A DNA stretch of 64,000 nt from a virus (IMGVR_UViG_3300038701_002504:19235-83234), one strand, 5' to 3'. Numbered from the stretch's first letter, positions 276 to 59,421 are shown. The notes: generated by a model not told the origin, from the sequence alone. Numbers and translations: made by a program.

Positions 276-1775
276 ATGATTAATTTTAAAGAATTTTTAA
301 ATGAGCATATTGTAGTAGGGGATTTGAAAAAGTCTCCTACTGATTTGTATTATGTATCTCCAGGGAGGGATGACAAGTCAAAATTGTTCATCTATCCAAA
401 AATCAAAGATATGCAATATGATTTTAAAATGGTATATACTGAAAAAGGTTTCGATGTCATTGATGAAGCTATATCTCTATGGGACAAGACAGAAAAATAT
501 CCATACCCAGAATTAAAAAAGATATTGATGTCAAAATCAAAAGAGATTATGCAAAATACATATCTAAAAGCTGAGGAAATTTTAGATAAGAATTTGGTGT
601 TAGAAATTGAAAAACAGTTTAATAAACCCGAAAACATTCAACGCGCTATGGAAAGTCTGAGTTCAAGTATAACATATTCAGGATTTCTGAATAATTATGA
701 TTCATACAGAGATTATGCGAAGAAAAACACAAATTCTTATGGTAGAATAATCGTAACATTACAGTCAATATATAAAATTATCGTTAATACAAACACAAAA
801 TCTATATATCCTGAATCAAACCCTATTCAACTTGCTTCAAGAATTGGAAAAATAGGATACGATGGCCAAAGCAAACAGACGTATATTATTCCTATGTCTG
901 AGGTTTCTATTGATTCTCCCAGAGAAATATATAAAATACTTCAATCATTGGTAAAAAAATATCCAGAATTAGCCAATTATTCATATATTGATGCTATGTC
1001 CAGATCACAAGAAAGAACTTTAATCAAAGATGTTCTTGATGGCGCAGGCGAAGTTGGCAAAATGAACACTTCATATAATAACATGTTTTCTCGAAGAAAT
1101 TCTATCACAGTCTATCATGGAACATCTGAAAAAATTTATAATGATTATATTAAAAATAGCGGATTACAACCTGATAAAGGACACCATTATAGCGACAAAA
1201 TTATGGGACATTCTGATAAAAATGTATATTTCACAGCAAATATAGGTGATGCTCGAAAATATGCAGTAAGAGCTTCTGGTGCAAGCTCTAGATCAATGGT
1301 TCTTGAAGTTAAAATTACTGATTTCGATAAAATCACATTTGATGAAGATAATATGTATGGCGCACTGAGAAGAATACCTGAAAAAATTATGAAAGAAATA
1401 AAAGTTAGATTTTACAATCTCTATCTTCAGAATGATACAATATGGCCATTTGAACACACAAAAGAACATGTTGCAGACGTTGGTTTAGATCAAACAGAAA
1501 TTTCTATTCATAGCTTAAAATACAATCTAGAAAAAAATCCTGGTAATATGAAATTGATAAAACCACTATTAGATTTCATTGGATATTATGCTGTGAAAGG
1601 CTCAACATTTACTTTCGCATATAATGGAATTATCTCTCCACGCGATATTAAAGTGAAAGAGACATTTAAATCAAAAGCATATAAAGATTCTGGCGGAGAG
1701 GCGGGCGACTGGGAAACAAAGAATTTCAAAAAGAAATATTCAGGGATTTTGAAAAGTTTCAAATCAGGAAAATAA
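276..1775 (+). CDS. Putative head-packaged protein with C-terminal H-Y-type ADP-ribosyltransferase-like domain
   Basis: N-terminus MINFKEFLNE resembles the T4 capsid-targeting sequence. C-terminal half has VYHGTS...SGL...VYFT...ARKYA...VLEV, the strand order of H-Y-class ART/Tpt1-like folds. Confidence 0.6.
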   Translation: MINFKEFLNEHIVVGDLKKSPTDLYYVSPGRDDKSKLFIYPKIKDMQYDFKMVYTEKGFDVIDEAISLWDKTEKYPYPELKKILMSKSKEIMQNTYLKAEEILDKNLVLEIEKQFNKPENIQRAMESLSSSITYSGFLNNYDSYRDYAKKNTNSYGRIIVTLQSIYKIIVNTNTKSIYPESNPIQLASRIGKIGYDGQSKQTYIIPMSEVSIDSPREIYKILQSLVKKYPELANYSYIDAMSRSQERTLIKDVLDGAGEVGKMNTSYNNMFSRRNSITVYHGTSEKIYNDYIKNSGLQPDKGHHYSDKIMGHSDKNVYFTANIGDARKYAVRASGASSRSMVLEVKITDFDKITFDEDNMYGALRRIPEKIMKEIKVRFYNLYLQNDTIWPFEHTKEHVADVGLDQTEISIHSLKYNLEKNPGNMKLIKPLLDFIGYYAVKGSTFTFAYNGIISPRDIKVKETFKSKAYKDSGGEAGDWETKNFKKKYSGILKSFKSGK

Positions 1776-2827: not shown

Positions 2828-3493
2828 ATGAATATTGAGAAAATTGTAGAAGTACTCATCGTAGTAGCTTTATCTATTGTCCTTACGACAGTAACTTACC
2901 TTATTGGTCTTCAATTAGGATGGATTCTTCTTATTGACAATATTGAATTTATTGGTGTTGTCCTGAATTATTCATGCGTTATTCTTACTGTTCGGCAAAA
3001 CATCTGGGCATGGCCTATTGGTATTTTAGCTGTAATTTTTCTGGGAATTCTTTTCTGGAATTATTCTCTATATTCAAGTTTAGCTCTTTCCATTCTTTAC
3101 TTCCTTCCGGTTCAGTTTCTTGGCTGGTGGGCGTGGCTTAAAGGCGGTAAAGATCGAACTGAATTAAATGTCTCAAATCTCACATTCAACCAATGGGGTA
3201 TGATTATTATTAGTGTACTTCCTCTATATTTTGGTGTATCATATCTTAATGTGTTTTTAGGTGGAGCCTCTCCATTTCTTGACACTGCAATTTTGATTGT
3301 TTCAATTCTTGCTCAATATCTTCTTATCTGGAAGAAAATTGAGAGTTGGGGAGCTTGGATTATTGTGAATATTGTGTCGATCTATGTTTATGGTACAACT
3401 GGAGCGTTCCTACTAGCAACACAATATCTATTATTCCTTGGAAATGCCGTATATGGATACATCATGTGGAAAAAGGATTCGAAAAATGTCTAG
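2828..3493 (+). CDS. pnuC: Nicotinamide riboside transporter PnuC
   Basis: Multi-TM protein with RQNIWAWPIG, QFLGWWAW, AQYL and ESWGAWIIVN motifs; directly upstream of nadR. Confidence 0.85.
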   Translation: MNIEKIVEVLIVVALSIVLTTVTYLIGLQLGWILLIDNIEFIGVVLNYSCVILTVRQNIWAWPIGILAVIFLGILFWNYSLYSSLALSILYFLPVQFLGWWAWLKGGKDRTELNVSNLTFNQWGMIIISVLPLYFGVSYLNVFLGGASPFLDTAILIVSILAQYLLIWKKIESWGAWIIVNIVSIYVYGTTGAFLLATQYLLFLGNAVYGYIMWKKDSKNV

Positions 3494-4526
3494 AATTGCA
3501 ATCACGCTTGGAAAGTTCTATCCTTTTCACGAAGGTCATAAAGCATTAATAGATTTTATGCTTGAATATCCGTTGGATTTTGATGAACATTTCACATTGG
3601 TATGTGGAAAACCTGGAGATTTAATTCCAACTAAAGTGCGATTTGAGGCAGTACGTCAATATAATCACAGAAATAATTATGATGTTGATTATATTGACGA
3701 CCCTGATATGCCAGATTATCCAAAGGATGATGTAGACTTTTGGGAAAAATGGGTGAATGTAATTGAAAAAAATCTGTGGAAAGATACAGATGAAGTTTAT
3801 CTTTTTACATCCGAAGTATACGGCGAACAGTTTGCTCGAGAGATTCAAGCAAGAATTCCATATGTAAAGAAATGTGTTCATATTCCATTTGATCCAGATC
3901 GAACATCTTATTCTATTTCTGGATCTGAAATTAGGGATGATTTTCTCAATATGGAATATGCTGTTGACAAACATATTATCAATTATTTGACTAAATATGT
4001 TTATTTTGTCGGGGCAGAGTCCACAGGTAAAACTACAACAGCTAAAAGAATTTCAAATAGAATTCTTTCCTCGCTATATGTGTCTGAATATGCTCGCGGA
4101 TATCTTGAAATGAAGGGTGCTCGATTAACGCCTGAAAAATTTCATGATATCATTAATGGCCAATATGCACAGGAATTATCATCTACTAGATCTTGTCATC
4201 TGTTCAAATTTTATGACACATGTCTTATCACAACCTATGGCTGGGCTAAACTGTATTATCCTGAAATTGCTTTCTATATTAAAAAAATGTTTGACCTGAA
4301 AGCAATTTACACTAGCAGAAATACTCTTTTTGTGATGATGGATGATGACATTCCATTCACGCCTGATAGTTTACGATATGGTGTGGATAAAAGAGATACA
4401 ACAACAGAATATTGGGCAAGTATTCTGAACGAATTCGATATTCCATTTGTGATGTATAATCGTGAAATGGAAAACAAAATTATTGACGTATTTAACGAAA
4501 AGGGTTTATATAATGGAATTTCCTGA
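3486..4526 (+). CDS. nadR: NadR-like NMN adenylyltransferase / ribosylnicotinamide kinase (no HTH)
   Basis: GKFYPFHEGH (HxGH) N-domain, ISGSEIR, P-loop GAESTGKTT C-domain; start moved to MSRIAI. Confidence 0.85.
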   Translation: MSRIAITLGKFYPFHEGHKALIDFMLEYPLDFDEHFTLVCGKPGDLIPTKVRFEAVRQYNHRNNYDVDYIDDPDMPDYPKDDVDFWEKWVNVIEKNLWKDTDEVYLFTSEVYGEQFAREIQARIPYVKKCVHIPFDPDRTSYSISGSEIRDDFLNMEYAVDKHIINYLTKYVYFVGAESTGKTTTAKRISNRILSSLYVSEYARGYLEMKGARLTPEKFHDIINGQYAQELSSTRSCHLFKFYDTCLITTYGWAKLYYPEIAFYIKKMFDLKAIYTSRNTLFVMMDDDIPFTPDSLRYGVDKRDTTTEYWASILNEFDIPFVMYNREMENKIIDVFNEKGLYNGIS

Positions 4527-11047: not shown

Positions 11048-12448
11048 ATGTCAAATATTAATCTCATTCTACAAGCCGATTCATACAAATATTCACACTT
11101 TCAGTTGTTTCCTGAAGGAACTGAAATCAATAACTCGTATATTGAATCTCGAGGTGTTGATAATACATCAGGTCTTCCAGCAAACACTGAAATTGTGTTT
11201 TTCGGCCTGCAAGCATACATTCAAGAATATCTCACTAAGCCAGTTACGATGAATGACGTTGACGAAGCTGAAAAGCTTATTACAGCTCACGGTCTTCCAT
11301 TCAATCGTAGTGATTGGGAAATCATCGTAAATGAGTTTGACGGATATCTTCCAATTTATATTGAAGCTCTACCTGAAGGAACAGTTGTAAAACCTGGAGT
11401 TGCAATGGTTCAGGTTCGTAATACTGATCCACGTTTCGCATGGCTTGCAAGCTTTATGGAAACAGCAATTCTTCGTGCTGTATGGTATCCTTCAACTGTT
11501 GCAACACTATCACGCGAAGCAAAGAAAATCATTAAGAAGTTTCTTGTTGATACTGCTGATAATACGGATGGTCTCCCATTCAAACTTCATGACTTTGGTG
11601 CTCGCGGAACCTCAAGCTCTGAAACAGCAATGCTTGGTGGTATGGCCCACCTTGTGAACTTCATGGGAACCGATACTGTGGAAGCTCTCGTTGGAGCAAT
11701 TCGTTATTATGGAGCTGATGGTCCAGTTGGATACTCAATTCCAGCATCTGAACACTCAACAATTACATCATGGGGCCGCGAAAATGAAGTCAAGGCATAT
11801 GAAAATATGCTTGACAAATTTGCGAAACCAGACGCAATTATCGCATGTGTGAGTGATAGCTACAATATCTATAATGCCGTGGAAAATCTATGGCCTTCCC
11901 TGAAGGACAAGATCGTAGAATCTGGTGTGACACTTGTTATTCGTCCTGACTCTGGAGACCCTGTAACTGTTGTAACAGAGATTACAGAAACTCTTTCTCA
12001 GAAATTTGGTTACACTACGAATAGTAAGGGATATAAAGTTCTGAATAATGTACGTGTTATTCAGGGTGATGGTATTGATATCACATCTCTTCGTAGCATT
12101 CTGTATGGTCTTATGAGCAAAGGTTTCTCTGCTGATAATATCGCGTTCGGTATGGGCGGCGGCCTTCTTCAGAAGGTCAATCGAGATACCCTTAAATTCG
12201 CAATGAAAACTAATGCTATCCGTAACGATGGAAAATGGATCGATGTATACAAGCAACCCATCGGTTCTGAATTTAAGAAGTCAAAGGCTGGTATTCTCAA
12301 AACTGTAAATAGGAATGGCGAATTTATTACAGTTCGAGCTAGTGAAGCTGATGATGAATTAAATTCAATGTTGACGGTGTTTATAAACGGTAATATTCCA
12401 ACACCGTACACTTTTGACCAAGTACGTGCTAATGCGGAGGTGAAGTAA
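11048..12448 (+). CDS. nadV: Nicotinamide phosphoribosyltransferase (NAMPT)
   Basis: ADSYKYSH, LHDFGARG, PASEHS, VSDSYN, IRPDSGDP, VIQGDG, FGMGGGLLQ, KKSKAG. Confidence 0.95.
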   Translation: MSNINLILQADSYKYSHFQLFPEGTEINNSYIESRGVDNTSGLPANTEIVFFGLQAYIQEYLTKPVTMNDVDEAEKLITAHGLPFNRSDWEIIVNEFDGYLPIYIEALPEGTVVKPGVAMVQVRNTDPRFAWLASFMETAILRAVWYPSTVATLSREAKKIIKKFLVDTADNTDGLPFKLHDFGARGTSSSETAMLGGMAHLVNFMGTDTVEALVGAIRYYGADGPVGYSIPASEHSTITSWGRENEVKAYENMLDKFAKPDAIIACVSDSYNIYNAVENLWPSLKDKIVESGVTLVIRPDSGDPVTVVTEITETLSQKFGYTTNSKGYKVLNNVRVIQGDGIDITSLRSILYGLMSKGFSADNIAFGMGGGLLQKVNRDTLKFAMKTNAIRNDGKWIDVYKQPIGSEFKKSKAGILKTVNRNGEFITVRASEADDELNSMLTVFINGNIPTPYTFDQVRANAEVK

Positions 12449-13467
12449 TGCGTAAAGTTAGTATTTTCATTGGCCGTTTTCAACCGTTCCATATGGGACA
12501 TTATGCAATTGTTAAGTCTGCTCTTGAGCAGACTGACTTCCTTGTGATGGTTTTGGGATCACATAAGAAATCCATTAATACACGTGACCCACTCACGACA
12601 CACCAGCGAATTGATATTATCAAAAGATCTTTATCTCAAGAACAGCTAGAGCGTATTCGATTTGTAAAAGTTGAAGACTATGAATATAATCTGGATAAGT
12701 GGATCGCATCTGTAAATACTGCTATTGCGAATGCTAATCTTCCTTGGCATTCTGGACCAACTTCATATTATCTTGCTGGTATGATGAAGGATCATAGTTC
12801 GTTTTATCTTAATCTTTTTCCTAATTACAAATCAATTATTTGTGAGACAGACGAGAATAATACTCTTAGCTCAACATTTATTCGTAAAATGTGGTATGAA
12901 GGAGAACAAGGTCTATATGATGCGTTTGTTTCAACAGAAGCATATAATTTGTTCGATGTGTATATTGAACAAAATGATAAGAAATATAGTCTAAAATACG
13001 AATACAATTTTGAACAGGAATATCCTGGAAAATGGGGTAAAGGTCCTCACCTAACTGTTGATTCTTGTGTTGTTCAAGCTGGACATGTGCTTCTTATTCA
13101 ACGCGGTAAGGAATATGGCCACAATAAGTGGGCATTACCAGGTGGGTTTGTGAATCCTTATGAAACCACTCTTGATGCCTCACTTCGCGAATTGGATGAA
13201 GAAACACAGATTAAATTACCAATGAAGATTTTACGTGGTAGTTTGGTTTCTTCTAAACTTTATGACTCTCCATATAGGTCAAACCGTGGTAGAGTTGTAA
13301 CGAATGCATTTCAATATCGTCTTTCCGATGTTGGACCTTTGCCTAAAGTTGTTGGTTCTGATGACGCAAAAGATGCACAATTTGTTCCAATTTCTAAGTT
13401 TTTGACAATGCAGGATGAAATGTTTGAAGATCACTACTCCATGATTTGCGATATATTAAAATTATAA
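12448..13467 (+). CDS. nadM: Bifunctional NMN adenylyltransferase / Nudix ADP-ribose pyrophosphatase
   Basis: GRFQPFHMGH (HxGH), LSSTFIR, Nudix box GGFVNPYETTLDASLRELDEET, GSDDA, FEDH. Confidence 0.93.
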   Translation: MRKVSIFIGRFQPFHMGHYAIVKSALEQTDFLVMVLGSHKKSINTRDPLTTHQRIDIIKRSLSQEQLERIRFVKVEDYEYNLDKWIASVNTAIANANLPWHSGPTSYYLAGMMKDHSSFYLNLFPNYKSIICETDENNTLSSTFIRKMWYEGEQGLYDAFVSTEAYNLFDVYIEQNDKKYSLKYEYNFEQEYPGKWGKGPHLTVDSCVVQAGHVLLIQRGKEYGHNKWALPGGFVNPYETTLDASLRELDEETQIKLPMKILRGSLVSSKLYDSPYRSNRGRVVTNAFQYRLSDVGPLPKVVGSDDAKDAQFVPISKFLTMQDEMFEDHYSMICDILKL

Positions 13468-14673: not shown

Positions 14674-15183
14674 ATGTTAAATGTAAAGACTATTGAAGCT
14701 GAAATTGAAAACGAGATTGCAGAAGCCAAAGCAGCAATCGAAAAGTTGAATGAAGAAATCAAGAATCGTTCTCAACAGGTATTTGCAAATGCAATCAGTA
14801 AGTATTTTACTGCATTTCCAATTGTTGAATATATCACATGGACTCAGTATACACCTGGATTTAATGATGGTGAACCATGCGAGTTCGGTGTGAATGGTCC
14901 ATATATTCGTCTAAAAGGCGATCCATTTGACGATGAAGATGATTATGATGAGGGTACCTATATTCCAAGTGAATGGAGTCGAAAGAATTATCCAAAAGAT
15001 GCTGCAAAATTTGATGAAAAATATGGAACACATTTGAATTCAATTCAGAAAGCAAAGTCTGTTGCTGAGAGTATTATTGGATGTATGGATGAATCTGTAT
15101 TGAATATGATGTATGGCGATGGAAGTAAGATTAAAATCTATGCCGATCGCATCGATGTAACTGATTATGATTGTGGGTACTAA
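14674..15183 (+). CDS. Hypothetical protein
   Basis: WTQYTPGFNDGEPCEF motif; coiled-coil N-terminus. Confidence 0.6.
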   Translation: MLNVKTIEAEIENEIAEAKAAIEKLNEEIKNRSQQVFANAISKYFTAFPIVEYITWTQYTPGFNDGEPCEFGVNGPYIRLKGDPFDDEDDYDEGTYIPSEWSRKNYPKDAAKFDEKYGTHLNSIQKAKSVAESIIGCMDESVLNMMYGDGSKIKIYADRIDVTDYDCGY

Positions 15184-15185
15184 TT

Positions 15186-15638
15186 ATGAGAGTCGTTCAG
15201 GGAGATTTACTTGAAGCGAAAGAAGAAATCATTGCGCATGGGTGTAACTGCCAGGGTGTAATGGGTTCGGGTGTTGCAAAAGTTATTAAAGAAAAATGGC
15301 CAGAAGCATTTGAAAGGTATGTAGACGATTTAAGTAACTTTTCCACCAAACTTGGCGATGCGACAATAGTTTTTACTGAAGAAGGTAAATGCGTTTTTAA
15401 TCTTCTTACTCAGAACAATTATGGTACAGTAGATCGTATGGTAAACTATGCGGCTCTTATTACATCTCTGCAATTCGCTATTGTATTGTATCATATTGAG
15501 ACAGGCAAAAATGTTACAAGTATAGCTATTCCAAAGATAGGTGCTGGTTTAGGTGGTGGTAACTGGGAAATTATTCATCAACTTTTAGAAGATTTTGAAA
15601 AAATGTATAATGTGGAATTTGTATTATATATCATTTAA
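15186..15638 (+). CDS. Macrodomain ADP-ribose-binding/hydrolase (T4 Tk.4 / DarG-TARG1-like)
   Basis: QGDLL, IAHGCNCQGVMGSGVAK, IAIPKIGAGLGGGNW. Confidence 0.88.
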   Translation: MRVVQGDLLEAKEEIIAHGCNCQGVMGSGVAKVIKEKWPEAFERYVDDLSNFSTKLGDATIVFTEEGKCVFNLLTQNNYGTVDRMVNYAALITSLQFAIVLYHIETGKNVTSIAIPKIGAGLGGGNWEIIHQLLEDFEKMYNVEFVLYII

Positions 15639-19495: not shown

Positions 19496-19503
19496 TATAA
19501 ATA
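19496..19503 (+). promoter_or_regulatory. Late promoter TATAAATA for the ART-like/gp4/gp2 operon
   Basis: Exact consensus 34 nt upstream of 19538. Confidence 0.75.
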
Positions 19504-19520: not shown

Positions 19521-19528
19521 TATTTATA
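19521..19528 (-). promoter_or_regulatory. Late promoter TATAAATA for the gp54/gp26/gp51 operon
   Basis: TATTTATA on the + strand. Confidence 0.7.
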
Positions 19529-19537
19529 AGGAAAAAG

Positions 19538-20164
19538 ATGAACAGTTTTAAACAATTTCTCGAAGAAGGTAGAGATGCTCCTTTATATCATGGGACTGAT
19601 ACTCATGCTGCAATTCAAATCATTGATGCCGATACACTCGAAGGAAGAACCGACAACCATTCAAGACTCGAGCCTTTAAATTCATGGGGCGAAAAGAAAA
19701 AAGAGTTAGTTGTAAATGTGAATCATTTCAAACCAAAAAAATATACAAAATTTAACGGTTCGTCTTTTTCTCGCGATATGAGGAGATCATTGCATTGGAG
19801 AGGCGGAGGACTGTGTTTTGAAGTAGATCAGAGAAAACTATCTCAAAGACATAAGTTAGTTCCTATCAACATCTTTATGGCTATGGGTTATAATAAACAT
19901 GCGAAGGACGAAGAACTTGCAGAAGAATTTGTGATTGGAGATATTAAAAACTTTAGACGATATATAACAAGAATCATATTTCTAAAAGAATGGGATTTAT
20001 CCACATTTTTATTAAATGCTCAATTCTCTTTAAACCCAGACAAACTTCTGGGTTTCAGATATTTTCTATATTCAGAAAAGAAAACATATGATGTAAAATC
20101 GAAAAAGGATTTTATTAATATGTTGAAAGATTTGAAAATTTATGAAAAGATTATGAATGGCTAA
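19538..20164 (+). CDS. EGRDAPLYH-family paralogue 1 (putative capsid-targeted ART-like protein)
   Basis: MNSFKQFLEEGRDAPLYHGT; SSFSRD; FEVDQRKL; LAEEFV. Confidence 0.65.
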   Translation: MNSFKQFLEEGRDAPLYHGTDTHAAIQIIDADTLEGRTDNHSRLEPLNSWGEKKKELVVNVNHFKPKKYTKFNGSSFSRDMRRSLHWRGGGLCFEVDQRKLSQRHKLVPINIFMAMGYNKHAKDEELAEEFVIGDIKNFRRYITRIIFLKEWDLSTFLLNAQFSLNPDKLLGFRYFLYSEKKTYDVKSKKDFINMLKDLKIYEKIMNG

Positions 20165-20609
20165 GTATAAACAAGGCGTCTTCAAACCGCTTAGACCAGA
20201 AAAATATAAGGGAGACCTTAAGAAGAACCCACCGGTGTATCGCTCAAGCTGGGAATTAAAGCTTATGGTCAAATTGGACAATCACCCTGACGTGATCCAG
20301 TGGTCATCAGAAGGTATCGTAATTCCCTATAAGTCTCCAATCGATAATAAGTATCATAGATATTTTGTGGATTTCTATGTTAAGTTAAAAGATAAAGATG
20401 GAAATATACAGGAAATGATTATTGAAGTTAAACCATTGGGCCAAGTTATGGAACCAAAAAGAAGAAAGAATCAACAGGATAGAACTTTTCTACGTGAAGT
20501 AATGACCTGGGGAGTGAACCAAGCAAAATGGGATGCTGCTCGCGCTGCTGCAAAAAATAAAGGATGGAAATTTGAAATATTCACAGAGGATGATCTTAAT
20601 GTCCTTTAA
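20157..20609 (+). CDS. gp4: Head completion nuclease (gp4-like)
   Basis: YKQGVFKP, YRSSWE, WSSE, HRYFVDF, IIEVKP, NQAKW. Confidence 0.9.
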   Translation: MAKYKQGVFKPLRPEKYKGDLKKNPPVYRSSWELKLMVKLDNHPDVIQWSSEGIVIPYKSPIDNKYHRYFVDFYVKLKDKDGNIQEMIIEVKPLGQVMEPKRRKNQQDRTFLREVMTWGVNQAKWDAARAAAKNKGWKFEIFTEDDLNVL

Positions 20610-21129
20610 ACAATTCCTAGAAGAAGGTAGAGATGCTCCTTTATATCATGTTACTCCATTGGATAACTTTTTTGATATAGCTATGTCAAATAGACTAAAT
20701 GCAAGTAATTTATGGACATATGGAGCTAAACCCACAGTATCATTTACTCGTAATTATAAATTTTGTTTCGAATTTGCCAGACAACATCTGGATACTGGAA
20801 CAGGCCAATTGAGAGATACGAAAGATATCGCAATACTTGAAATCGATCAAAGAAGACTTTCACAGAGATATAAGATTATTCCTTATAGAGATTTAATTAA
20901 TTTGGGTGATGGATCAAGACTACATTATAATGAATTTGAAGAATATATTCAGGGAGATGTGAAGAATGTAAGCGACTATATTATAAAAACTCATATACCC
21001 GCAAGAGAATATTGGCATTCAAACGATGTTGCGTTATCGTATAAAAAGAAATACAGGAGATTTATATCATTAGTAATGGACTTTAAACCCTGGGATACTA
21101 AATCAAGAAAGTTTATTGATGCCATATAG
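20599..21129 (+). CDS. EGRDAPLYH-family paralogue 2
   Basis: MSFKQFLEEGRDAPLYHVT; VSFTRN; LEIDQRRL; EFEEYI. Confidence 0.65.
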   Translation: MSFKQFLEEGRDAPLYHVTPLDNFFDIAMSNRLNASNLWTYGAKPTVSFTRNYKFCFEFARQHLDTGTGQLRDTKDIAILEIDQRRLSQRYKIIPYRDLINLGDGSRLHYNEFEEYIQGDVKNVSDYIIKTHIPAREYWHSNDVALSYKKKYRRFISLVMDFKPWDTKSRKFIDAI

Positions 21130-21628
21130 TTTCAAACAATTTCTTGAAGAGGGACGAGACGCTCCGTTATATCATAGCACTGCTTATCGTTCAGGTTGTA
21201 TCATCTTTGAAGATAATGAAATACGCGCGAGAACATATCATATCAAAAAGTCCATGTTAGATGATAAAGCAAAAATAAAAAAAGCGTTCTCCAAGCGTGT
21301 TTTTGGTGGCTCTGATGAATATGTTGATGGTGTTGCAGGTGTTTCACTAACTCGTAATTTTAAGTTTGCAAAATCCTGGGGTGATATAATATTTGAAGTA
21401 GATCAGAAAAGATTAACTCAAAGATATAAGATTATTCCATTTAACTATTTTGTTGACCAGAGCAGTAAACCCGCAAATTTTAGAAAAGAAGCAGAAGAAT
21501 TTGTAATTGGCAACATATTTCCTTTAAATAAATATCTTATAAAAATACATATAAGCGTTGATTATATGTCTGAATTTGAAGAACGATATGGAAATAAACT
21601 TAAAGGAATTGAAGTTGTTGGGGTTTAA
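21119..21628 (+). CDS. EGRDAPLYH-family paralogue 3
   Basis: MPYSFKQFLEEGRDAPLYHST; VSLTRN; FEVDQKRL; EAEEFV. Confidence 0.65.
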   Translation: MPYSFKQFLEEGRDAPLYHSTAYRSGCIIFEDNEIRARTYHIKKSMLDDKAKIKKAFSKRVFGGSDEYVDGVAGVSLTRNFKFAKSWGDIIFEVDQKRLTQRYKIIPFNYFVDQSSKPANFRKEAEEFVIGNIFPLNKYLIKIHISVDYMSEFEERYGNKLKGIEVVGV

Positions 21629-22121
21629 AGAATATTTATTAGAAGGACGAGATGCTCCTTTGTTTCATGGTTCGTCATCAGGCAATGTAAACAACATGCT
21701 TGAAGAGAATATGATATCCTCGGAAACACTCCAGAAGATTGACGGAAAAAACCTAAAAGGTGTATCTCTTACAAGATCATATAAATTTGCATTAACTCAT
21801 ATTGGTCCAGCTTCATTTAAGCATGGCTATGACGTAATACTTGAATTAGATCAAAGACTTCTTTCTCAGAACTATAAGATTATTCCTTTTAATTGGTCTC
21901 CATCGTGGAAAGGCCCGCCTAAAGCAAGATATATGGATGATCTAGGTTCAGAGTTTGAAGAATTTGTGGTCGGTCCTATTCGTAATTTGAATAAGTATAT
22001 TGTTAAAATACACGCATCACACGAAATCTATTATAATGCTTCACAGGAAACAAAAGATAGATCTTCATTTTTATTGAAACATCCTAAACTCTTTATTGAT
22101 AGAAAGTTTGTCAATGCTTAA
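21615..22121 (+). CDS. EGRDAPLYH-family paralogue 4 (TTG start inferred)
   Basis: GFKEYLLEGRDAPLFHGS; VSLTRS; LELDQRLL; EFEEFV; AAAGGA RBS at 21602. Confidence 0.62.
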   Translation: MLGFKEYLLEGRDAPLFHGSSSGNVNNMLEENMISSETLQKIDGKNLKGVSLTRSYKFALTHIGPASFKHGYDVILELDQRLLSQNYKIIPFNWSPSWKGPPKARYMDDLGSEFEEFVVGPIRNLNKYIVKIHASHEIYYNASQETKDRSSFLLKHPKLFIDRKFVNA

Positions 22122-22650
22122 TTTCAAACAATACTTGGAAGAAGGTAGAGATGCTCCTTTATATCATGCAACTGAGTACAGAGCTCTTTTGAATATTCTT
22201 ATAACGAATAAATTGGAAGCCCTGAATTATCATGAGTTTAATAGTAAAATAAAAAAGAAACATAGAAATTCCTGGGGTGATGTGAAGATTATATCATTTA
22301 CACGAAACATAAGATTTGCTAGAGCTTGGTTAAATCAATTAATGGGTTATGGACCTATACTTGAACTAGATCAGAGAAAACTTGCGCAGAGATATAAATT
22401 TGTTCCATTTAACTTTTTTTCCTATGGTGCTAGAGTCGACACCGATGAACTTGGTATAGACTATGATGGCGATTATGGTATGAATTTCCCATATAATCAA
22501 TTTGAGGAAAATGTGATAGGTGATATTAAGAACCTCGATAAATATTTAACTAAAATAATAGTTGTAGATGATAGATGGAAATCCGATAAAATAATATCGT
22601 CACATCCTCTTTTATATGATCTAAAAACGAAAAGGTTTATCAATGCTTAA
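22114..22650 (+). CDS. EGRDAPLYH-family paralogue 5 (QxE subtype)
   Basis: MLNFKQYLEEGRDAPLYHAT; ISFTRN; LELDQRKL; QFEENV. Confidence 0.65.
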   Translation: MLNFKQYLEEGRDAPLYHATEYRALLNILITNKLEALNYHEFNSKIKKKHRNSWGDVKIISFTRNIRFARAWLNQLMGYGPILELDQRKLAQRYKFVPFNFFSYGARVDTDELGIDYDGDYGMNFPYNQFEENVIGDIKNLDKYLTKIIVVDDRWKSDKIISSHPLLYDLKTKRFINA

Positions 22651-23149
22651 TTTTAAACAATTCCTAGAAGAAGGTAGAGATGCTCCTTTATATCACGGGA
22701 CTGATGCAACACTTAAAATTCTTGAGACAAATACATTGAAAGGTACACGCAGCCATTCATATCAGAGCCTGATGATTGATAAGGATGGAGAAGCAAAAGG
22801 AGTTTCTCTTACAAGAAACATAAAAGTAGCTTCACAGTTTCAAAAATGGGCTGATCACAGCAATTATGCAATCTTTGAGTTGGATCAGAAGAAACTTGCT
22901 CAGAATCATAAAATCATTCCTGTAAACTTCTGGGGAGCTCTGAAAGGTGAGCCCGCAAGATCAAAATCAATTCCAAAAGATGAAGTGGGTTCTGAATATG
23001 AAGAATTTGTGATGGGTGATATTAAGAACCTCGATAAATATATCATAAGAATATTCATTTTTAGTAAGAAGAGTAAGTTGTATGGAAAGCCGAATGTTCT
23101 TCTTGTAAAGAAGAACGATCTCATACTTGGAAAGCATAGAAGAAGATGA
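22643..23149 (+). CDS. EGRDAPLYH-family paralogue 6
   Basis: MLNFKQFLEEGRDAPLYHGT; VSLTRN; FELDQKKL; EYEEFV. Confidence 0.65.
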   Translation: MLNFKQFLEEGRDAPLYHGTDATLKILETNTLKGTRSHSYQSLMIDKDGEAKGVSLTRNIKVASQFQKWADHSNYAIFELDQKKLAQNHKIIPVNFWGALKGEPARSKSIPKDEVGSEYEEFVMGDIKNLDKYIIRIFIFSKKSKLYGKPNVLLVKKNDLILGKHRRR

Positions 23150-23703
23150 ACAGTTTTAAGCAATATTTGGAAGAAGGTCGAGCTGGGCCTCTGTATCATG
23201 CTACGAATGTCGATAGAGCTTCGTTTATTGTGGGTGATAATAAAATAATGGCTAAAACGATACATAAGTTAAAGCCAGATTATAGAACAATAAATGGTGT
23301 TTCTCTTACACGCGATTATAAATTTGCGATACATTTCGGTTTTCATGAAATGAGATATTTTACTCTTGTTATATTTGAACTTGATCAAGCAAAACTTTCT
23401 CAAAAATTTAAAATAATGCCAATCAATTATTATAACACAACATTTCCAATAGAACAAGGGTTTAGACCATATAAAGGTGCTAGAAGATCTCAAGGTCGTC
23501 ACCTGCTGGGTGATGAGAACAATGAATCGGAAGAGTTTGTGCTAGGTAATATAAAAGATGTATCAAAATATATTGTAAAAATTCATGTATGTTCTGACTT
23601 AACAAAGGAAAGAATAGATGAACATTATCCAAGACTGGCGAAACATCCTAAACTTTGGTTTGCTGAAAAGAATAACGAAAAAGGTTATTTCTACAATGCT
23701 TAA
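23146..23703 (+). CDS. EGRDAPLYH-family paralogue 7
   Basis: MNSFKQYLEEGRAGPLYHAT; VSLTRD; FELDQAKL; ESEEFV. Confidence 0.65.
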   Translation: MNSFKQYLEEGRAGPLYHATNVDRASFIVGDNKIMAKTIHKLKPDYRTINGVSLTRDYKFAIHFGFHEMRYFTLVIFELDQAKLSQKFKIMPINYYNTTFPIEQGFRPYKGARRSQGRHLLGDENNESEEFVLGNIKDVSKYIVKIHVCSDLTKERIDEHYPRLAKHPKLWFAEKNNEKGYFYNA

Positions 23704-24283
23704 TTTCAAACAATACTTGGAAGAAGGACGAGATGCTCCACTTTATCATACTACAGATGAATCTTATATGCGCTACATCATCGAAAAAAATTCAATAAAA
23801 GCGAAAACAGAACATCAAGTTGGTTATAGACCTGGTAATAGATCAGGTAATAAATGGAAAGATGTGATATCTCTTACACGTTCTATAAAATTTGCTCATC
23901 GTTGGGGAGAAAGAAAAGGTTCTGGTTATTATTTTATATTTGAACTAGATCAGAGAAAACTTTCTCAGAGACATAAATTTGTTCCCTATAACCATTTTGG
24001 CGATCATTATTATAATGACGAAAAAGGTGCAGCTCGTAGAATGAATGATGTTACTGATTTTAATTTTCCTATTAATCAATATGAGGAGAATATTATTGGA
24101 GATATCAAAAATTTAAATCAATATTTAACTAAAATAATATTATCCGAAAAATTATATAATGGATATTTTTCAGAAAAAAATTCAGATAGACAAGATGCAG
24201 TTATTAAATATGGAAAAGAAGTAGTGTATCATAAACTGTTATGGTATAATGGAAAATTCATCAATGCTCATTATTATAAGTAG
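23696..24283 (+). CDS. EGRDAPLYH-family paralogue 8 (QxE subtype)
   Basis: MLNFKQYLEEGRDAPLYHTT; ISLTRS; FELDQRKL; QYEENI. Confidence 0.65.
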   Translation: MLNFKQYLEEGRDAPLYHTTDESYMRYIIEKNSIKAKTEHQVGYRPGNRSGNKWKDVISLTRSIKFAHRWGERKGSGYYFIFELDQRKLSQRHKFVPYNHFGDHYYNDEKGAARRMNDVTDFNFPINQYEENIIGDIKNLNQYLTKIILSEKLYNGYFSEKNSDRQDAVIKYGKEVVYHKLLWYNGKFINAHYYK

Positions 24284-24289
24284 GAATCA

Positions 24290-24754
24290 ATGAATAACTT
24301 TAAACAATTCTTAGAAGAAGGTCGCGATGCTCCTTTATATCATGGAACATATGCTGAAGCAGCTGATGAAATTATAAAAGATAACACTATGATAGCCTAT
24401 ACAAATCACGGAAGAAAAGTAACTTCATTTTCTTATTATTCAAAAAATTTTAGAGGTAAAGTTGAGCAGGATGGCATATCTCTTACGCGTGATATTCGCT
24501 TTGCATGGTCGTGGAATGGACAAGTAGTATTTGAACTTGACCAAAGAAAGCTTGCGCAAACTCATAAGATTGTTCCCATTAAGATAGAAGGTGTTTTAAG
24601 AGGAAAAAATCGAAATGCTTTTATGCATATGGCAGAAGAATTTGTAATCGGACCTATTAAAAACTTTGATAAATACTTAATAAGAATTCATTTAAAAAAA
24701 GAATGGACTTATCCAGAATCTTTATTAAAACATCCTCTAATTAAGTGGCATTAA
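24290..24754 (+). CDS. EGRDAPLYH-family paralogue 9
   Basis: MNNFKQFLEEGRDAPLYHGT; ISLTRD; FELDQRKL; MAEEFV. Confidence 0.65.
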   Translation: MNNFKQFLEEGRDAPLYHGTYAEAADEIIKDNTMIAYTNHGRKVTSFSYYSKNFRGKVEQDGISLTRDIRFAWSWNGQVVFELDQRKLAQTHKIVPIKIEGVLRGKNRNAFMHMAEEFVIGPIKNFDKYLIRIHLKKEWTYPESLLKHPLIKWH

Positions 24755-25365
24755 TGACATCATTACTCTTTACAAAAGTATTAGAAAAAGCAGCAAGATC
24801 AGGAAACCCGAAATTCGGATCTGTTGAATTGCGAGATTTCCTGCGTGATAAAGCTTTGGCAGCTACATCTCGTAATGTGAGCAGTAAAAGATTCGTTGAG
24901 ACAAAGAAAGCAAAAGCAAATGTAGTCACAACAATCAAACCTGGAACAATGGTTTGTTATTTCTATGATGCGAAACATAAAGCTACATTACCATATTATG
25001 ATAAATTTCCAGTTGGATTTGTTATTGATGTTCAAAAAGATTATAATTTATTCTTAAATCTGCATTACTTACCGCCGATTTTTAGAGCTAGATTAATGGA
25101 TGCATTATACGATTTATTAAATAATCAAAAATATGACGACACTACAAAGCTTAAAATGTCATATGACATTTTAAGAAGTGCTGCTAAATTTAAATATTTT
25201 AAACCGTGTATAAAAAAACATTTACATAATCGAATACAAAGTCATATGATTCAAATAGATGTAAGAGAGTGGGATTATGTGGCATTTTTACCTTTAAATC
25301 GTTTTTCTGGTGCAAATCAAAGAAAAGTGTGGGATGACTCAATTAAGATCATTAATAAGTCTTGA
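24754..25365 (+). CDS. gp2: DNA end protector (gp2-like)
   Basis: PGTMVCYFYDAKHKATLPYYDKFP, LNLHYLPP, KPCIKKHL; TAATG coupling. Confidence 0.9.
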   Translation: MTSLLFTKVLEKAARSGNPKFGSVELRDFLRDKALAATSRNVSSKRFVETKKAKANVVTTIKPGTMVCYFYDAKHKATLPYYDKFPVGFVIDVQKDYNLFLNLHYLPPIFRARLMDALYDLLNNQKYDDTTKLKMSYDILRSAAKFKYFKPCIKKHLHNRIQSHMIQIDVREWDYVAFLPLNRFSGANQRKVWDDSIKIINKS

Positions 25366-26094
25366 TTTACACTTATCAAAATGCCATCTTAACATGATCC
25401 GACCACCTGATTTTAAACAATGTGGACATGTGTATGTTTTATTATGTGTTTCTGCTATAGCTTTCTTATGTTCAAATGTTTTAGGAACATTCTTAAGCTT
25501 TTTGCTAACTTTAATAGCATGTTCAGGTCTTTTCTTTCCATAAAATGGGTTTTTGTCCCCAGATTTTGATTCCGATAGTTTAAGTTTAGTTTTATCGCTA
25601 TGCTTTTTTCCATAAAAACCGTTTAAATTACCTATTTTCTTTTTGCCAGCTTTTGATAATTTTTCTTTTGTTTCATCATATAATATCCATCCTTTAACCC
25701 AATCATCCCCTGGACATTCTAAAGAAAGAGTATTTTTAACACCATTATTCCATCTTGATAAATCATTTATGTCTATACTATGAGAAGATGTTATATTTAA
25801 AAATTTTTTCCACATATTATATTTCCGTATCTTCTTTAAAAAATTATGCTCCCATAATTGAGCAGATTTAGCATCTTCAAACGTTTTTCTTATTTGTATA
25901 ATATCAGGCTCACCATATTTTTCTCTAAACATTTTCACATGTTTAGAGGAAGTAAAATATGTTTTCCATAAATCATCTGGGTGACATCCGCTATCATATA
26001 ATGAGCAAAATCTTTTAGCAGTTCTAACACCATAGTAAAATTTTTGGTGTTCGCTCCAGCCTATAAGATAAGTATAAGGTGTATAAATAGACAT
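25339..26094 (-). mobile_element. Free-standing GIY-YIG-like homing endonuclease with NUMOD3-type repeats
   Basis: YTYLIGW...FYYGVR...YFTSS N-domain; GKKHSDKTKLKLSESKSG and GKKRPEH repeats; Zn-knuckle CPHC...HFDKC. Confidence 0.7.
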
Positions 26095-35902: not shown

Positions 35903-37075
35903 ATGCAACCATATTCACTAATGCATAATCTATCCTTTAAAATGTTATTGGAGAATCGTATTGATTTTCTTCAGAAGTACTATGAAGATAAAGTATCTAA
36001 ACATGGGTTTAGATTTAATATGCCCATGTGGGCTTCAATACTAAATGCCGATCCTACAAATAAAAAGATTTATCTTCAGTGGATCATTAATCAAGTATTC
36101 AATATGGGAAATGATAGACTTTATGATGAGGATCTTTATAAAGTAACAGATGCTTTGATCATTTATGATCGTATCAAAAGACAATTCTCTAAGAAAGACA
36201 TTAATCAATATAAGACTTATAGAGAATTGGTGAATGAAGCTGATAATCTTTCAGATAATAAATCTGGTAAAGAAATTAAAAAAGATGAAATGAAAAAAGC
36301 TCTAGAGCAGTCAAAAATTGTATATAAAGGCTCAGATGGAAGCATCATCATTCCATATACAAAGGAAGCTTCTTGTATTCTTGGTCGTGGTACTAAATGG
36401 TGTACTGCTGCTACTGGTTCAAAGAATTTTTTCCAAGCATATAATAAAGATGGCCCTCTGTATGTTATTGAATATAAAAGTAAGAAATATCAATTTCATT
36501 TAGAATCTAATTCATATATGGATGAAAGAGACTATGAAATTAATGAAGATGAGCCTGTCGTTGCTTGGTTTTTCAATAAAATACCTATAAAGAATATATT
36601 GGACGCAGCTCGTATAGAAGCGAATGGCATTCTTAAATGGTATCCCAGCGCATCAAAACAAATACAGTTAGTCGCTGTGAAAGCTTCTCCATATTCAATA
36701 TCATACATTCAAAATCCATCTGAAGATGTACAGCTTGCTGCTGTTAGATCAGAAGTTGAATGTATAGATCATTTCAAACCAACCGAAAAGGTTCAACTAT
36801 ATGCTGTTAAGACAGAACCTACAAATATTATGTATATAGAAAATCCAACTGAAGTTGTGCAGGAATATGTTGTAAGAAAAATATTCGCTAAAAAGAGCAT
36901 TACGCCTTTAAATCTCACATTTTTTCCAAAAGAAGAAAAAGTGAGTGAAAAAATAAAGGAACTCTGTATATCACTGGAATCCAATAGTATATTTAGATTG
37001 TTTCGTCCATCAGAAAACCTTAAACGGTTTTATGAAAAGAAAACTGGTAAACTTTACATTAATGGCGGAAAATAA
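35903..37075 (+). CDS. Putative capsid-targeted protein with WCT-motif domain and ~23-aa C-terminal repeats
   Basis: MHNLSFKMLLE leader (35921); LGRGTKWCTAA...GPLY...KYQFH; four PS/TExVQLxAV repeats (DUF4116-like). Confidence 0.5.
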   Translation: MQPYSLMHNLSFKMLLENRIDFLQKYYEDKVSKHGFRFNMPMWASILNADPTNKKIYLQWIINQVFNMGNDRLYDEDLYKVTDALIIYDRIKRQFSKKDINQYKTYRELVNEADNLSDNKSGKEIKKDEMKKALEQSKIVYKGSDGSIIIPYTKEASCILGRGTKWCTAATGSKNFFQAYNKDGPLYVIEYKSKKYQFHLESNSYMDERDYEINEDEPVVAWFFNKIPIKNILDAARIEANGILKWYPSASKQIQLVAVKASPYSISYIQNPSEDVQLAAVRSEVECIDHFKPTEKVQLYAVKTEPTNIMYIENPTEVVQEYVVRKIFAKKSITPLNLTFFPKEEKVSEKIKELCISLESNSIFRLFRPSENLKRFYEKKTGKLYINGGK

Positions 37076-37462
37076 ATGAGACAAGTAATATACAGAGACC
37101 TTAAAAAGTCATTCGACAAACATCCTGTGAGTAATGATCTTCTCACAATATCCGAAGAGGATGCTGTAAAAGACTCTATTATGAATATTGTCTTCACATC
37201 TCCGTATGAGAGATATCGTAATCCAAGATTTGGCGCAGGAATTCCTGCTGATTTGTTTGAAAATTTGAGCCCACAGACCGAATACCAAGTAAAGAACCGT
37301 ATTGAGAATGCAATTAATACATACGAGCCACGTGCTATTCTTCAGAATGTTGCTGTTGCAGCAAATCTAGATCAGAATAATTATGTTGTGAGTATTCAAT
37401 TCCGCGTGAGAAACAGTTTTGAAATTATTACTGTACAGAATATTCTAAGGAGAATACGATGA
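37076..37462 (+). CDS. gp25: Baseplate wedge subunit (gp25-like)
   Basis: AVKDSIMNI..T..YER..NPRFG, INTYEPRA. Confidence 0.88.
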   Translation: MRQVIYRDLKKSFDKHPVSNDLLTISEEDAVKDSIMNIVFTSPYERYRNPRFGAGIPADLFENLSPQTEYQVKNRIENAINTYEPRAILQNVAVAANLDQNNYVVSIQFRVRNSFEIITVQNILRRIR

Positions 37463-37899
37463 CATTTAAAGAGTATCTAACAGAGCTATTCGACAGACCT
37501 GCCAAAATCTATACACTTGCTGATAATTTGACGGACAGGGAAGCCATATTCACTGTTGGAAATAACAAGTACAGTATATATTTAAGTAAGGAACCCATCA
37601 GAAAAATCGTATGGAACGTAACATTTGCTATTATAGAAATAGATGGTATGCCTGTGGGTGGTATAGATAGCATTAAAACAACAAATCTGAATGTTGATAA
37701 AAATGTTGTATTCGCAACAGTAATTAAGTTTATTGAGTCACATCACAGAAAAGAAGATACATATAAATTTACCACATGGAAGATTGAAAAGTCGCGCATT
37801 AGACTTTATGATACATTATCCAAAAGATTGGCAAAAAAATATAATATGAAAGTAGAGAAATCAGTATTTGGAAATGTTATTGAATGGCAATTGTCATAA
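37459..37899 (+). CDS. Putative capsid-targeted small protein
   Basis: MTFKEYLTELFD leader, resembling both the CTS motif and the T4 Alt N-terminal ITELFD. Confidence 0.45.
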   Translation: MTFKEYLTELFDRPAKIYTLADNLTDREAIFTVGNNKYSIYLSKEPIRKIVWNVTFAIIEIDGMPVGGIDSIKTTNLNVDKNVVFATVIKFIESHHRKEDTYKFTTWKIEKSRIRLYDTLSKRLAKKYNMKVEKSVFGNVIEWQLS

Positions 37900-58458: not shown

Positions 58459-59012
58459 ATAGCTTTAAACAATTCCTAGAAGAAGGTCGCGATGCTCCTT
58501 TATATCATGCATTATACGATGAATATGCTGTTTCAGCGATAAAACACAATCATCTTTTAGCTAAATCTGTGCATAATATAAAGTTGGATATCAAACAGAA
58601 TAGACTTAACAGATTTAGAGAAGCAAAAGTTATATCCCTCACCAGAAATTTAAGATTTGCTCTGAGATGGGCCGGCGGTGGAAGAGTTGATGGAGAATAT
58701 AAAGTAATTTTCGAATTAGATCAAAGAAAACTAACTCAAAATTATAAACTTATTTCATATAACTTCTTTGCTAATTATGGAAAACATCCAACAAGAAAAG
58801 GTGATAATGAATTAGGGATGGATGAATATAACTTTCCAAAAAATCAATATGAAGAATCAATAATTGGTGATGTAAAAAATTTAAATAAATATTTAACAAA
58901 AATAATGTTTGTTGATGTTTCAAATGTTAAAAAAGAAAACGAATATATGAAAATACTATTGAAACACCCACTAGCATGGGATATGAAAACAAAAAGGTTT
59001 ATAAATGGCTAA
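58455..59012 (+). CDS. EGRDAPLYH-family paralogue 10 (QxE subtype)
   Basis: MNSFKQFLEEGRDAPLYHAL; ISLTRN; FELDQRKL; QYEESI. Confidence 0.65.
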   Translation: MNSFKQFLEEGRDAPLYHALYDEYAVSAIKHNHLLAKSVHNIKLDIKQNRLNRFREAKVISLTRNLRFALRWAGGGRVDGEYKVIFELDQRKLTQNYKLISYNFFANYGKHPTRKGDNELGMDEYNFPKNQYEESIIGDVKNLNKYLTKIMFVDVSNVKKENEYMKILLKHPLAWDMKTKRFING

Positions 59013-59421
59013 TGATCCAGTCTATGACAAATTAAATTTGAGACCTATATCAAACAAGTCTATTGAATTGGTGCCTCTTGATAAAAACAAAGGCGAACAA
59101 CTTTCAGATGATTTAGATGAAGCTCGCACAAATACGAGACATCTTATCAATGTCGGTGAAGAAGCTTTGAAAGAACTTCAGGATCTTTCGTCACAATCTC
59201 AAGATCCAAAGGCATATAGAGAACTTTCTGTTCTGATCAAAGTGATGTTAGATGCAAATAAATCACTTGTTGATACCGCGCGAGCTAGAAAAGAAATCGT
59301 CGTTGATGCGGATAAAGTTGTGAGTGATAATCCACAAACAGTTACAAATAATCTTTATGTTGGAACTACAACAGACGCTGTTGATATTCTTAAACAGAAG
59401 AGATCTATAAAAGATGACTAG
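59005..59421 (+). CDS. gp16: Terminase small subunit (gp16-like)
   Basis: PKAYRELSVLIK, VTNNLYVGTT; position before gp17. Confidence 0.8.
   Translation: MANDPVYDKLNLRPISNKSIELVPLDKNKGEQLSDDLDEARTNTRHLINVGEEALKELQDLSSQSQDPKAYRELSVLIKVMLDANKSLVDTARARKEIVVDADKVVSDNPQTVTNNLYVGTTTDAVDILKQKRSIKDD

Follow-up and report, generated by a model that had tools for sequence, protein, structure and literature searches.

A 64,000-nucleotide stretch of DNA from a T4-like phage (IMGVR_UViG_3300038701_002504:19235-83234; the whole of this stretch is referred to below as the window) contains an array of nine paralogous genes whose products are predicted to have the fold of ADP-ribosyltransferases (ARTs), and each of which begins with a short leader resembling the capsid targeting sequence (CTS) of phage T4. 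The window is part of a 109.5-kb IMG/VR fragment that is estimated to be 64% complete and is recorded as coming from an 'algae metagenome'. The arrangement of these genes, the residues that they conserve and the other proteins to which the same leader is attached suggest that the phage may load a diversified set of ART-like proteins into its head and deliver them to the host together with its DNA.

The nine open reading frames (ORFs) lie on the plus strand between positions 19538 and 24754, and encode proteins of 154–208 amino acids (Table 1). An earlier note on this DNA, made from the sequence alone, had described nine paralogues sharing four ordered blocks, and all of the blocks are recovered in an alignment of the nine copies, in which identity of the other paralogues to copy 1 is 29–44%. 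The residues fixed in all nine (copy 1 numbering) are G11, R12, P15, L16 and H18, then S76 and R79, then E95, D97, Q98, L101, Q103, K106 and P109, and finally E129, E130, G134 and Y142, and at the DNA level the motif blocks form repeat families of eight to nine copies. The note had counted 11 copies in the window, and a motif scan finds the same number; a profile search of the 109.5-kb record gives 12, with E-values from 2e-65 to 1.5e-32 that put the matches far beyond chance, the twelfth lying upstream of the window (G000:C1:14045-14641). Together the twelve genes sum to approximately 6.5 kb, or roughly 6% of the recovered genome.

In phage T4, a short leader loads proteins into the head, from which they are injected with the DNA. 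The strongest new argument for injection lies in the N-termini encoded by the array, and several features point to a comparable role for them. First, every copy starts with M-x-x-F-K-x-F/Y-L-x-E, followed directly by G-R-D-A-P-L-Y-H. Second, in an alignment of 141 members of the family the leader is conserved at F4 (122 of 136), Y/F7 (125 of 137), L/I8 (140 of 140) and E10 (140 of 140), and positions 2, 3, 6 and 9 vary freely. The T4 CTS, MKTYQEFIAE, is removed by the prohead protease (PMC8442874), and its targeting function resides in residues 4 and 7 and its processing function in residues 8 and 10 (PMC9026906); the four conserved positions of the leader are the functional positions in T4. 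Third, a relative in another contig begins with MKTYQEFLTE, which is identical to the T4 CTS at eight of ten residues. Fourth, the mature forms of all twelve copies are basic, with isoelectric points (pI) of 9.2–9.8. Finally, the phage has a gene for a gp21-type prohead protease (PF03420, 2.8e-39; G000:C1:89311-89952, L034:5312-5953), located in a region that keeps the T4 order of gp20, gp67-like protein, gp21, gp22 and gp23, and its gp23 has the sequence L-S-E-A, with the cut between E and A, at the expected end of the propeptide. The gp21-type protease itself carries N-L-E-E-G-R-K-P near its own N-terminus, similar to the F-L-E-E-G-R-D-A-P at the junction of leader and domain in the family, and this could be either an autocleavage site or a coincidence.

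The leader is also modular, which weighs most in its interpretation. Scanning the genome for F-K-x-[FY]-L-x-E (a stricter pattern matched family members only) identifies 17 occurrences, all 17 of which sit at the very start of an ORF, and the leader heads five kinds of otherwise unrelated protein in the same phage (Table 1). These are a protein kinase similar to T7 gp0.7, whose gene has the sequence TATAAATA about 50 nt upstream, an Acb1-like anti-CBASS phosphodiesterase, a 499-residue protein with an ART-like domain, a 146-residue protein encoded among baseplate genes (with a resembling counterpart at L011:8307-8747), and a very basic 103-residue protein whose gene is at a site expected for the gene of an internal head protein. 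The tagging of the Acb1-like protein suggests that an anti-defence nuclease may be delivered pre-made. The 499-residue protein has a weak PARP match in Pfam (E 0.01) and an AlphaFold2 model with a pLDDT of 72, for which almost every row at the top of the Foldseek list is an ART, at E 0.03 or weaker; a profile of the protein has no match among PDB sequences, and the protein is a possible analogue of T4 Alt. Kinase-like, 2H-like and DUF6934-like proteins that start with the leader are also encoded in other phage contigs, interleaved with ART-like arrays, and a further leader-tagged 2H-like protein is encoded at L016:9562-10008. A looser match is seen in a 390-residue ORF at 35903-37075, in which an internal methionine is followed by H-N-L-S-F-K-M-L-L-E; Pfam gives no match for this ORF.

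To predict the fold, copy 9 was modelled with AlphaFold2 on the basis of the 141 relatives (pLDDT 83, pTM 0.79), and the model has strands at residues 16–20, 61–66, 79–83, 94–97, 116–120 and 130–135, with helices between them. Exhaustive structural comparison with 48,161 PDB representative chains using VIA-align places yeast Tpt1 first (7yw4; Z 10.5, root mean square deviation 2.6 over 104 residues), followed by the DarT proteins of M. tuberculosis and Thermus (Z 9.5, 7yk3, and 9.3, 7omv) and KptA (Z 8.8); SopF, DarT1, TreX, diphtheria toxin, pertussis S1 and PARPs are matched as well, and all 50 rows among the matches listed are ART-fold proteins. The best 50 rows of a Foldseek comparison with PDB are likewise all ARTs, and the AlphaFold DB clusters retrieved by Foldseek include DarT, DUF2971 and Tox-ART-HYD1. 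Comparison of the family profile with all PDB sequences yields four weak matches, three of which are DarT1 (E 0.054), Tpt1 and DarT, each aligned on the strand-1 L-Y-H-x-T motif, and the only Pfam families matched repeatedly among the 141 members are PARP (9), Tpt1 (5) and DarT (2). The earlier note had made its interpretation hang on an ART-like fold; with all of the top structural matches being of this kind, we consider it very likely that the copies adopt the ART fold, which is established as far as prediction can establish it.

ART folds have their catalytic residues on strand 1 (His or Arg), strand 2 (Tyr or Ser-x-Ser) and strand 5 (Glu). The corresponding residues of the family, in the numbering of the copy 9 model and with counts from the 141 relatives, are H18 (140), S64 (140), T/S66 (141), R67 (141), E116 (141) and E117 (140), and in the predicted strand order H18 is at the end of strand 1, S-x-T/S is within strand 2 and E116 is at the start of strand 5. 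Position 114 is Glu in 96 relatives, Gln in 28 and Leu in 14, and together with E116 this forms an [EQ]-x-E motif (Glu or Gln at -2 from E116 in 124 of 141). Such a motif is typical of the R-S-E clade. H18 aligns with the His of the strand-1 motifs of DarT1, DarT and Tpt1, and in the alignment of the profile to DarT1, T66 falls on Ser63, the 'Y' position of H-Y-E, and the conserved Trp or Phe of the helix after strand 2 falls on F72; DarT1 is reported to have Ser63 at the 'Y' position and to stack F72 on nicotinamide (PMC11543638). The description in the earlier note of a hybrid H / S-x-T / E signature is therefore accurate. Two segments are hypervariable, model residues 41–61 (helix 1 to strand 2) and 101–113 (strand 4 to strand 5), and across the twelve copies the length of the latter is between 18 and 36 residues. 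This longest variable segment sits at the site of the ADP-ribosylating turn-turn (ARTT) substrate loop, in agreement with the suggestion that the variable loops lie where substrates would be recognized.

The family is abundant. A metagenome profile search of 1.84 billion representatives, with clusters defined at 50% identity, reveals 2,636 clusters when the limit is set at E≤1e-3, of which 1,056 also pass E≤1e-10, and those clusters with recorded taxa are viral. Arrays recur, with at least nine copies on one 46-kb contig and six in two separate places of a 147-kb contig, and a megablast comparison of the array against 50,697 phage records gives no match. The relatives are fast-evolving, with median terminal branches of more than one change per site. 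Origin of the array in a single recent burst of duplication is rejected, as the twelve copies do not form one clade in the tree, in which many of the deep forks are unsettled and the branches are long. Copies 11, 9, 1 and 4 pair with orthologues in other contigs (c11-L015, c9-L001, c1-L002 and c4-L004), which makes the repertoire an old and maintained one; the sole phage-specific clade, containing copies 5, 8 and 10, looks like a local duplication.

The domain is also present two to eight times within single giant phage proteins, where its partners include ART-PolyVal, GNAT, Nudix, ParB_N and nucleotidyltransferase domains. One of these proteins (P0029; L032:639-7511), of 2,290 residues, contains eight tandem copies, and the next gene encodes a PG_binding_1 protein. 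All eight of the repeats are preceded by [ILV]-x-E and then G-R-D-A, which is suggestive of release by a protease, and this protein may be a polyprotein cut by a prohead protease. The [ILV]-x-E sequence is not conclusive proof of such processing, and a second group of these proteins has an aliphatic residue together with Ala in place of Glu. Giant proteins of this type are the polyvalent proteins for which Iyer and colleagues (2017, 2022) proposed delivery by the virion (PMC5512222, PMC9503650).

We therefore propose a mechanism in which the proteins would be produced late in infection and loaded by their leaders into the prohead core, with the aromatic residues at positions 4 and 7 acting in targeting. 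The gp21-type protease would then trim the leader after L-x-E, and the proteins would remain in the head with the DNA until ejected into the next host cell, where each paralogue would use NAD+ to ADP-ribosylate its own target, set by the two hypervariable loops around the conserved H / S-x-T-R / E pocket. Packaging and injection are probable from the sequence features described above, and real NAD+-dependent catalysis is likely to a slightly lesser degree; the complete pathway of packaging, cleavage, injection, catalysis and targeting is one that we favor modestly. DNA or RNA targets would be as likely as protein targets, because the nearest structures, Tpt1/KptA and DarT, are nucleic-acid-directed ARTs. 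The earlier note had spoken of a candidate arsenal of injected effectors, and this is strengthened by the modular T4-type leader, the gp21-type protease gene and the relatives in polyvalent proteins, but its argument from a transcript shared with gp2 says little. The phage also has a set of genes for NAD+ metabolism in the window (at 2828-4526, 11048-13467 and 15171-15638), coding for PnuC, a NadR-like NMNAT/kinase, NAMPT, an NMNAT-Nudix fusion and a Macro domain protein, which would provide a single phage with two routes of NAD+ supply as well as an eraser of ADP-ribose. This set fits a phage that consumes NAD+ and must protect its supply, and can also be explained by counter-defence against NAD+ depletion alone.

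Some observations weigh against this proposal. Single E-values in the Foldseek comparison are only about 1e-2, and scans of the nine array copies with Pfam and PHROG give no meaningful match, with no curated model reaching its threshold. It is unusual to find a strand-1 His alongside S-x-T and [EQ]-x-E, and the convergence of H18, S64/T66 and E116 on one cleft is a prediction that follows from the strand order in the model. Among cultured phages there is none with the array, and tblastn with one copy matches only gene 243 of Bacillus phage SP-15, which is leaderless and lies in an uninformative context. In the internal repeats of the fusion proteins, the aliphatic residue at -3 before G-R-D-A-P is kept even where -1 is Ala and not Glu, and part of the leader motif may thus belong to the domain. 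Lastly, twelve NAD+ consumers that are delivered together could simply be NADases.

The internal repeats and the leaderless SP-15 homologue are compatible with an alternative explanation in which the proteins are active ARTs that are not packaged, the shared N-terminus being either a cassette for translation or recombination or the first helix of the domain, and it also agrees with this that the 5′ ends of the genes are conserved as DNA, with identities of 29–31 nt. However, the same decapeptide is present on unrelated folds both in this phage and in others, its conserved positions are exactly those that are functional in the T4 CTS (PMC9026906), and one of the leader-tagged proteins is encoded between the portal and the gp67-like head-core genes, such that we regard the absence of packaging as unlikely. 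A second explanation is that the proteins are packaged but non-catalytic, using the ART scaffold as internal proteins that condense DNA or inhibit host enzymes in the manner of T4 IPI*, with the paralogues diversified to bind different host defence proteins. The basic character of all of the mature forms and the hypervariable loops are in accord with this, as is the finding that the internal proteins of T4 are diverse inhibitors of defence with only the CTS in common (PMC3012670). It is nonetheless hard to explain without a conserved small-molecule pocket why H18, S64, R67 and E116 should be invariant or nearly so in 141 fast-evolving sequences, and this explanation seems quite improbable.

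An invariant Glu is typical of transferases, and Tpt1 is not known to have one. This is pertinent to a third possibility, in which the packaged proteins are not transferases with specific targets but NAD+ glycohydrolases or phosphate-directed enzymes like Tpt1, and either deplete or reshape the NAD+ and ADP-ribose pools of the host at entry or cap the 5′-phosphate or 2′-phosphate ends of nucleic acids. In its favor, the NAD+ lobe of Tpt1/KptA is the structure that matches best, and the phage encodes a Nudix domain and a Macro domain in addition to two routes of NAD+ supply. This possibility too is improbable given the invariant Glu of the family, the lack of the Tpt1 RNA-binding lobe with its catalytic Arg-His residues, and the twelve diverged paralogues with variable loops, which would be unnecessary for a simple NADase.

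Comparison of the proposed packaged transferases with known systems shows similarities to several of them; membership in Alt/VIP2, DarT and Tpt1/KptA is rejected. Like T4 IPI, IPII and IPIII, the family has a 10-residue N-terminal leader in which positions 4 and 7 are aromatic, position 8 is aliphatic and position 10 is Glu, and it also has in common with them basic mature forms, high diversity between related phages, a late-gene setting and a phage with a gp21-type protease. The T4 internal proteins, however, are small, non-enzymatic and of unrelated folds, whereas here a single enzyme-like fold is present twelve times, and the genes are situated among those for head completion, terminase and the baseplate. 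T4 Alt, a head-packaged ART that is processed by gp21 and injected, resembles the family as a phage protein with the ART fold and a presumed delivery with the DNA so as to modify host targets at entry, but it belongs to the R-S-E (Alt/VIP2) clade, and is large, single-copy and made with a 7-residue propeptide (PMC9026906); the family has a strand-1 His, a length of 150–200 residues, a full leader of the internal protein type and twelve paralogues. Membership in Alt/VIP2 is rejected, since strand 1 has His and not Arg and there is no Pfam match of the Alt/VIP2 type. By analogy, the family would act like Alt, as a packaged ART, and be tagged like the T4 internal proteins.

DarT and DarT1 have in common with the family the strand-1 L-[YF]-H-x-T, a Ser or Thr at the 'Y' position and an aromatic side chain in the helix that follows strand 2. 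DarT, though, is a toxin of bacteria whose partner is a DarG or NADAR antitoxin, and the substrate loops of the family are shorter and different; with two weak matches among the 141 relatives, the best at E 0.02 and below threshold, assignment to DarT (PF14487) is rejected. There is no DarG (Macro) or NADAR antitoxin gene beside the copies, whose neighbors are structural genes, and the only Macro gene (15171-15638) is located about 4 kb upstream of the array and is paired with no copy. Tpt1/KptA (PF01885), in spite of its recurrent weak Pfam matches, is likewise rejected, as only its C-terminal lobe (yeast Tpt1 residues 107–230) aligns, and the five Pfam matches in 141 are weak. The ART-PolyVal (PF18760) and Tox-ART-HYD1 (PF15633) domains of polyvalent proteins share with the family the concept of virion-delivered ARTs and the occurrence of homologous domains in giant proteins, but every domain described here has a gene and a targeting leader of its own. 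Neither Pfam model matches the window copies; two multi-domain relatives (P0062 and P0044) score above the cut-off that HYD1 sets for whole proteins, through an alignment limited to profile positions 1–23 or 1–42 of 97, and where ART-PolyVal is matched, in P0035 and P0039, the match covers another domain of the protein. The earlier note, which knew of no T4-like phage described with such an expansion, claims too much novelty, as the literature already contains head-packaged phage ARTs, ARTs beside head genes, and phages that carry 10 or more ARTs (PMC9503650). Apart from Alt, we found no ART that a paper connects with a CTS, nor did we find a named model for the family in Pfam or PHROG.

The remaining features are listed in Table 1. 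The large terminase of the phage shares 60% identity with that of Rhizobium phage RHph_I1_18 and about 50% with those of the Sinorhizobium phiM12 group. Copy 1 is separated from copies 2–9 by a gp4-type head-closure gene, and a gp2-type DNA end protector gene closes the operon-like run. Neighboring genes of the array abut or overlap (the refined starts are TTG at 21615 or 21618 for copy 4, ATG at 22114 for copy 5 and ATG at 23696 for copy 8), and it is reasonable to expect that they are co-transcribed. A late promoter upstream of the array had been noted previously, and a match to the T4 late-promoter consensus, though a consensus match only, is found ahead of copy 1; no RNA run was found that contains the array stretch, which is present only in two DNA runs labelled 'algae metagenome', one of them probably its source. 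A terminator-like hairpin followed by a T-run is located at 20032-20055, within the 3′ end of copy 1 and just ahead of gp4, and could attenuate read-through into the remainder of the array. A homing-endonuclease-like gene (phrog_314, 1e-13) is present on the minus strand at 25339-26094, between gp2 and a gp48-like baseplate tail tube cap gene.

Table 1. Genes and sequence elements associated with the ART-like array. Positions count from the first nucleotide of the window except where a prefix is given.
Feature	Position	Strand	Evidence and remarks
T4-type late promoter consensus, TATAAATA	19496..19503	+	Consensus match only; 35 nt upstream of copy 1
Divergent T4-type late promoter consensus	19521-19528	-	Consensus match only
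ART-like paralogue 1, 208 aa	19538..20164	+	Alignment, profile search; leader MNSFKQFLEE
gp4-type head closure protein	20157..20609	+	phrog_218 4.7e-54; TnsA-like N domain; not a family member
ART-like paralogue 2, 176 aa	20599..21129	+	Alignment, profile search
ART-like paralogue 3, 169 aa	21119..21628	+	Alignment, profile search
ART-like paralogue 4, ~168 aa	21615..22121	+	Alignment, profile search; TTG start within the end of copy 3
ART-like paralogue 5, 178 aa	22114..22650	+	Alignment, profile search; Q-x-E variant
ART-like paralogue 6, 168 aa	22643..23149	+	Alignment, profile search
ART-like paralogue 7, 185 aa	23146..23703	+	Alignment, profile search; GRAGPLYH, a small departure from the first block; longest strand 4-strand 5 loop
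ART-like paralogue 8, 195 aa	23696..24283	+	Alignment, profile search; Q-x-E variant
ART-like paralogue 9, 154 aa	24290..24754	+	AlphaFold2 model; the modelled copy
gp2-type DNA end protector	24745..25365	+	phrog_429 4.4e-45
ART-like paralogue 10, 185 aa	58455..59012	+	Motif scan, profile search; between gp15-type tail sheath stabiliser and small terminase genes
Small terminase subunit	59005..59421	+	phrog_445 2.4e-18; not a family member
ART-like paralogue 11, 170 aa	59414..59926	+	Motif scan, profile search; E-K replaces E-E, invariant Glu retained; just before large terminase
499-aa protein with C-terminal H-Y-type ART-like domain	276..1775	+	YHGT and NVYFT motifs; leader MINFKEFLNE
146-aa protein	37459..37899	+	Weak DUF6934 match; leader MTFKEYLTE; between gp25-like and gp6-like baseplate genes
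T7 gp0.7-like protein kinase	L033:918-1571 (G000:C1:12417-13070)		phrog_15752 3.5e-10; leader MINFKSYLAE; GTG start; upstream of window
Acb1-like anti-CBASS 2H phosphodiesterase	L033:1571-2059 (G000:C1:13070-13558)		Pfam Acb1 2.8e-11, above cut-off; leader MISFKDYLKE
Very basic 103-aa protein	L034:2659-2970 (G000:C1:86658-86969)		Leader MIKFKNFLFE; between portal and gp67-like core genes

Many phage ARTs have been predicted to be head-borne by comparative genomics. What is new here is an abundant and unnamed ART family, with 2,636 clusters in the metagenome search and no Pfam or PHROG model, that is tied to a recognizable targeting leader, is expanded to roughly 6% of one recovered genome, and shares its leader with a kinase and an anti-CBASS enzyme. 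This raises the questions of what size and variety the set of proteins injected by a phage can reach, of whether anti-defence enzymes are delivered pre-made, and of whether nucleic-acid chemistry of the DarT/Tpt1 type is used in phage attack, beyond its place in bacterial defence. The leader could in addition allow the T4-style tools for protein packaging to be carried over to other phages. A broader and decidedly more tentative reading, which we think doubtful as it stands, is that a clade of T4-like phages uses the CTS leader as a general export signal and pre-loads a mixed arsenal, in which a dozen loop-diversified DarT/Tpt1-like ARTs that mark host or phage DNA or RNA would be accompanied by the kinase and Acb1. 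If true, counter-defence and host take-over would begin in these phages before any phage gene is expressed.

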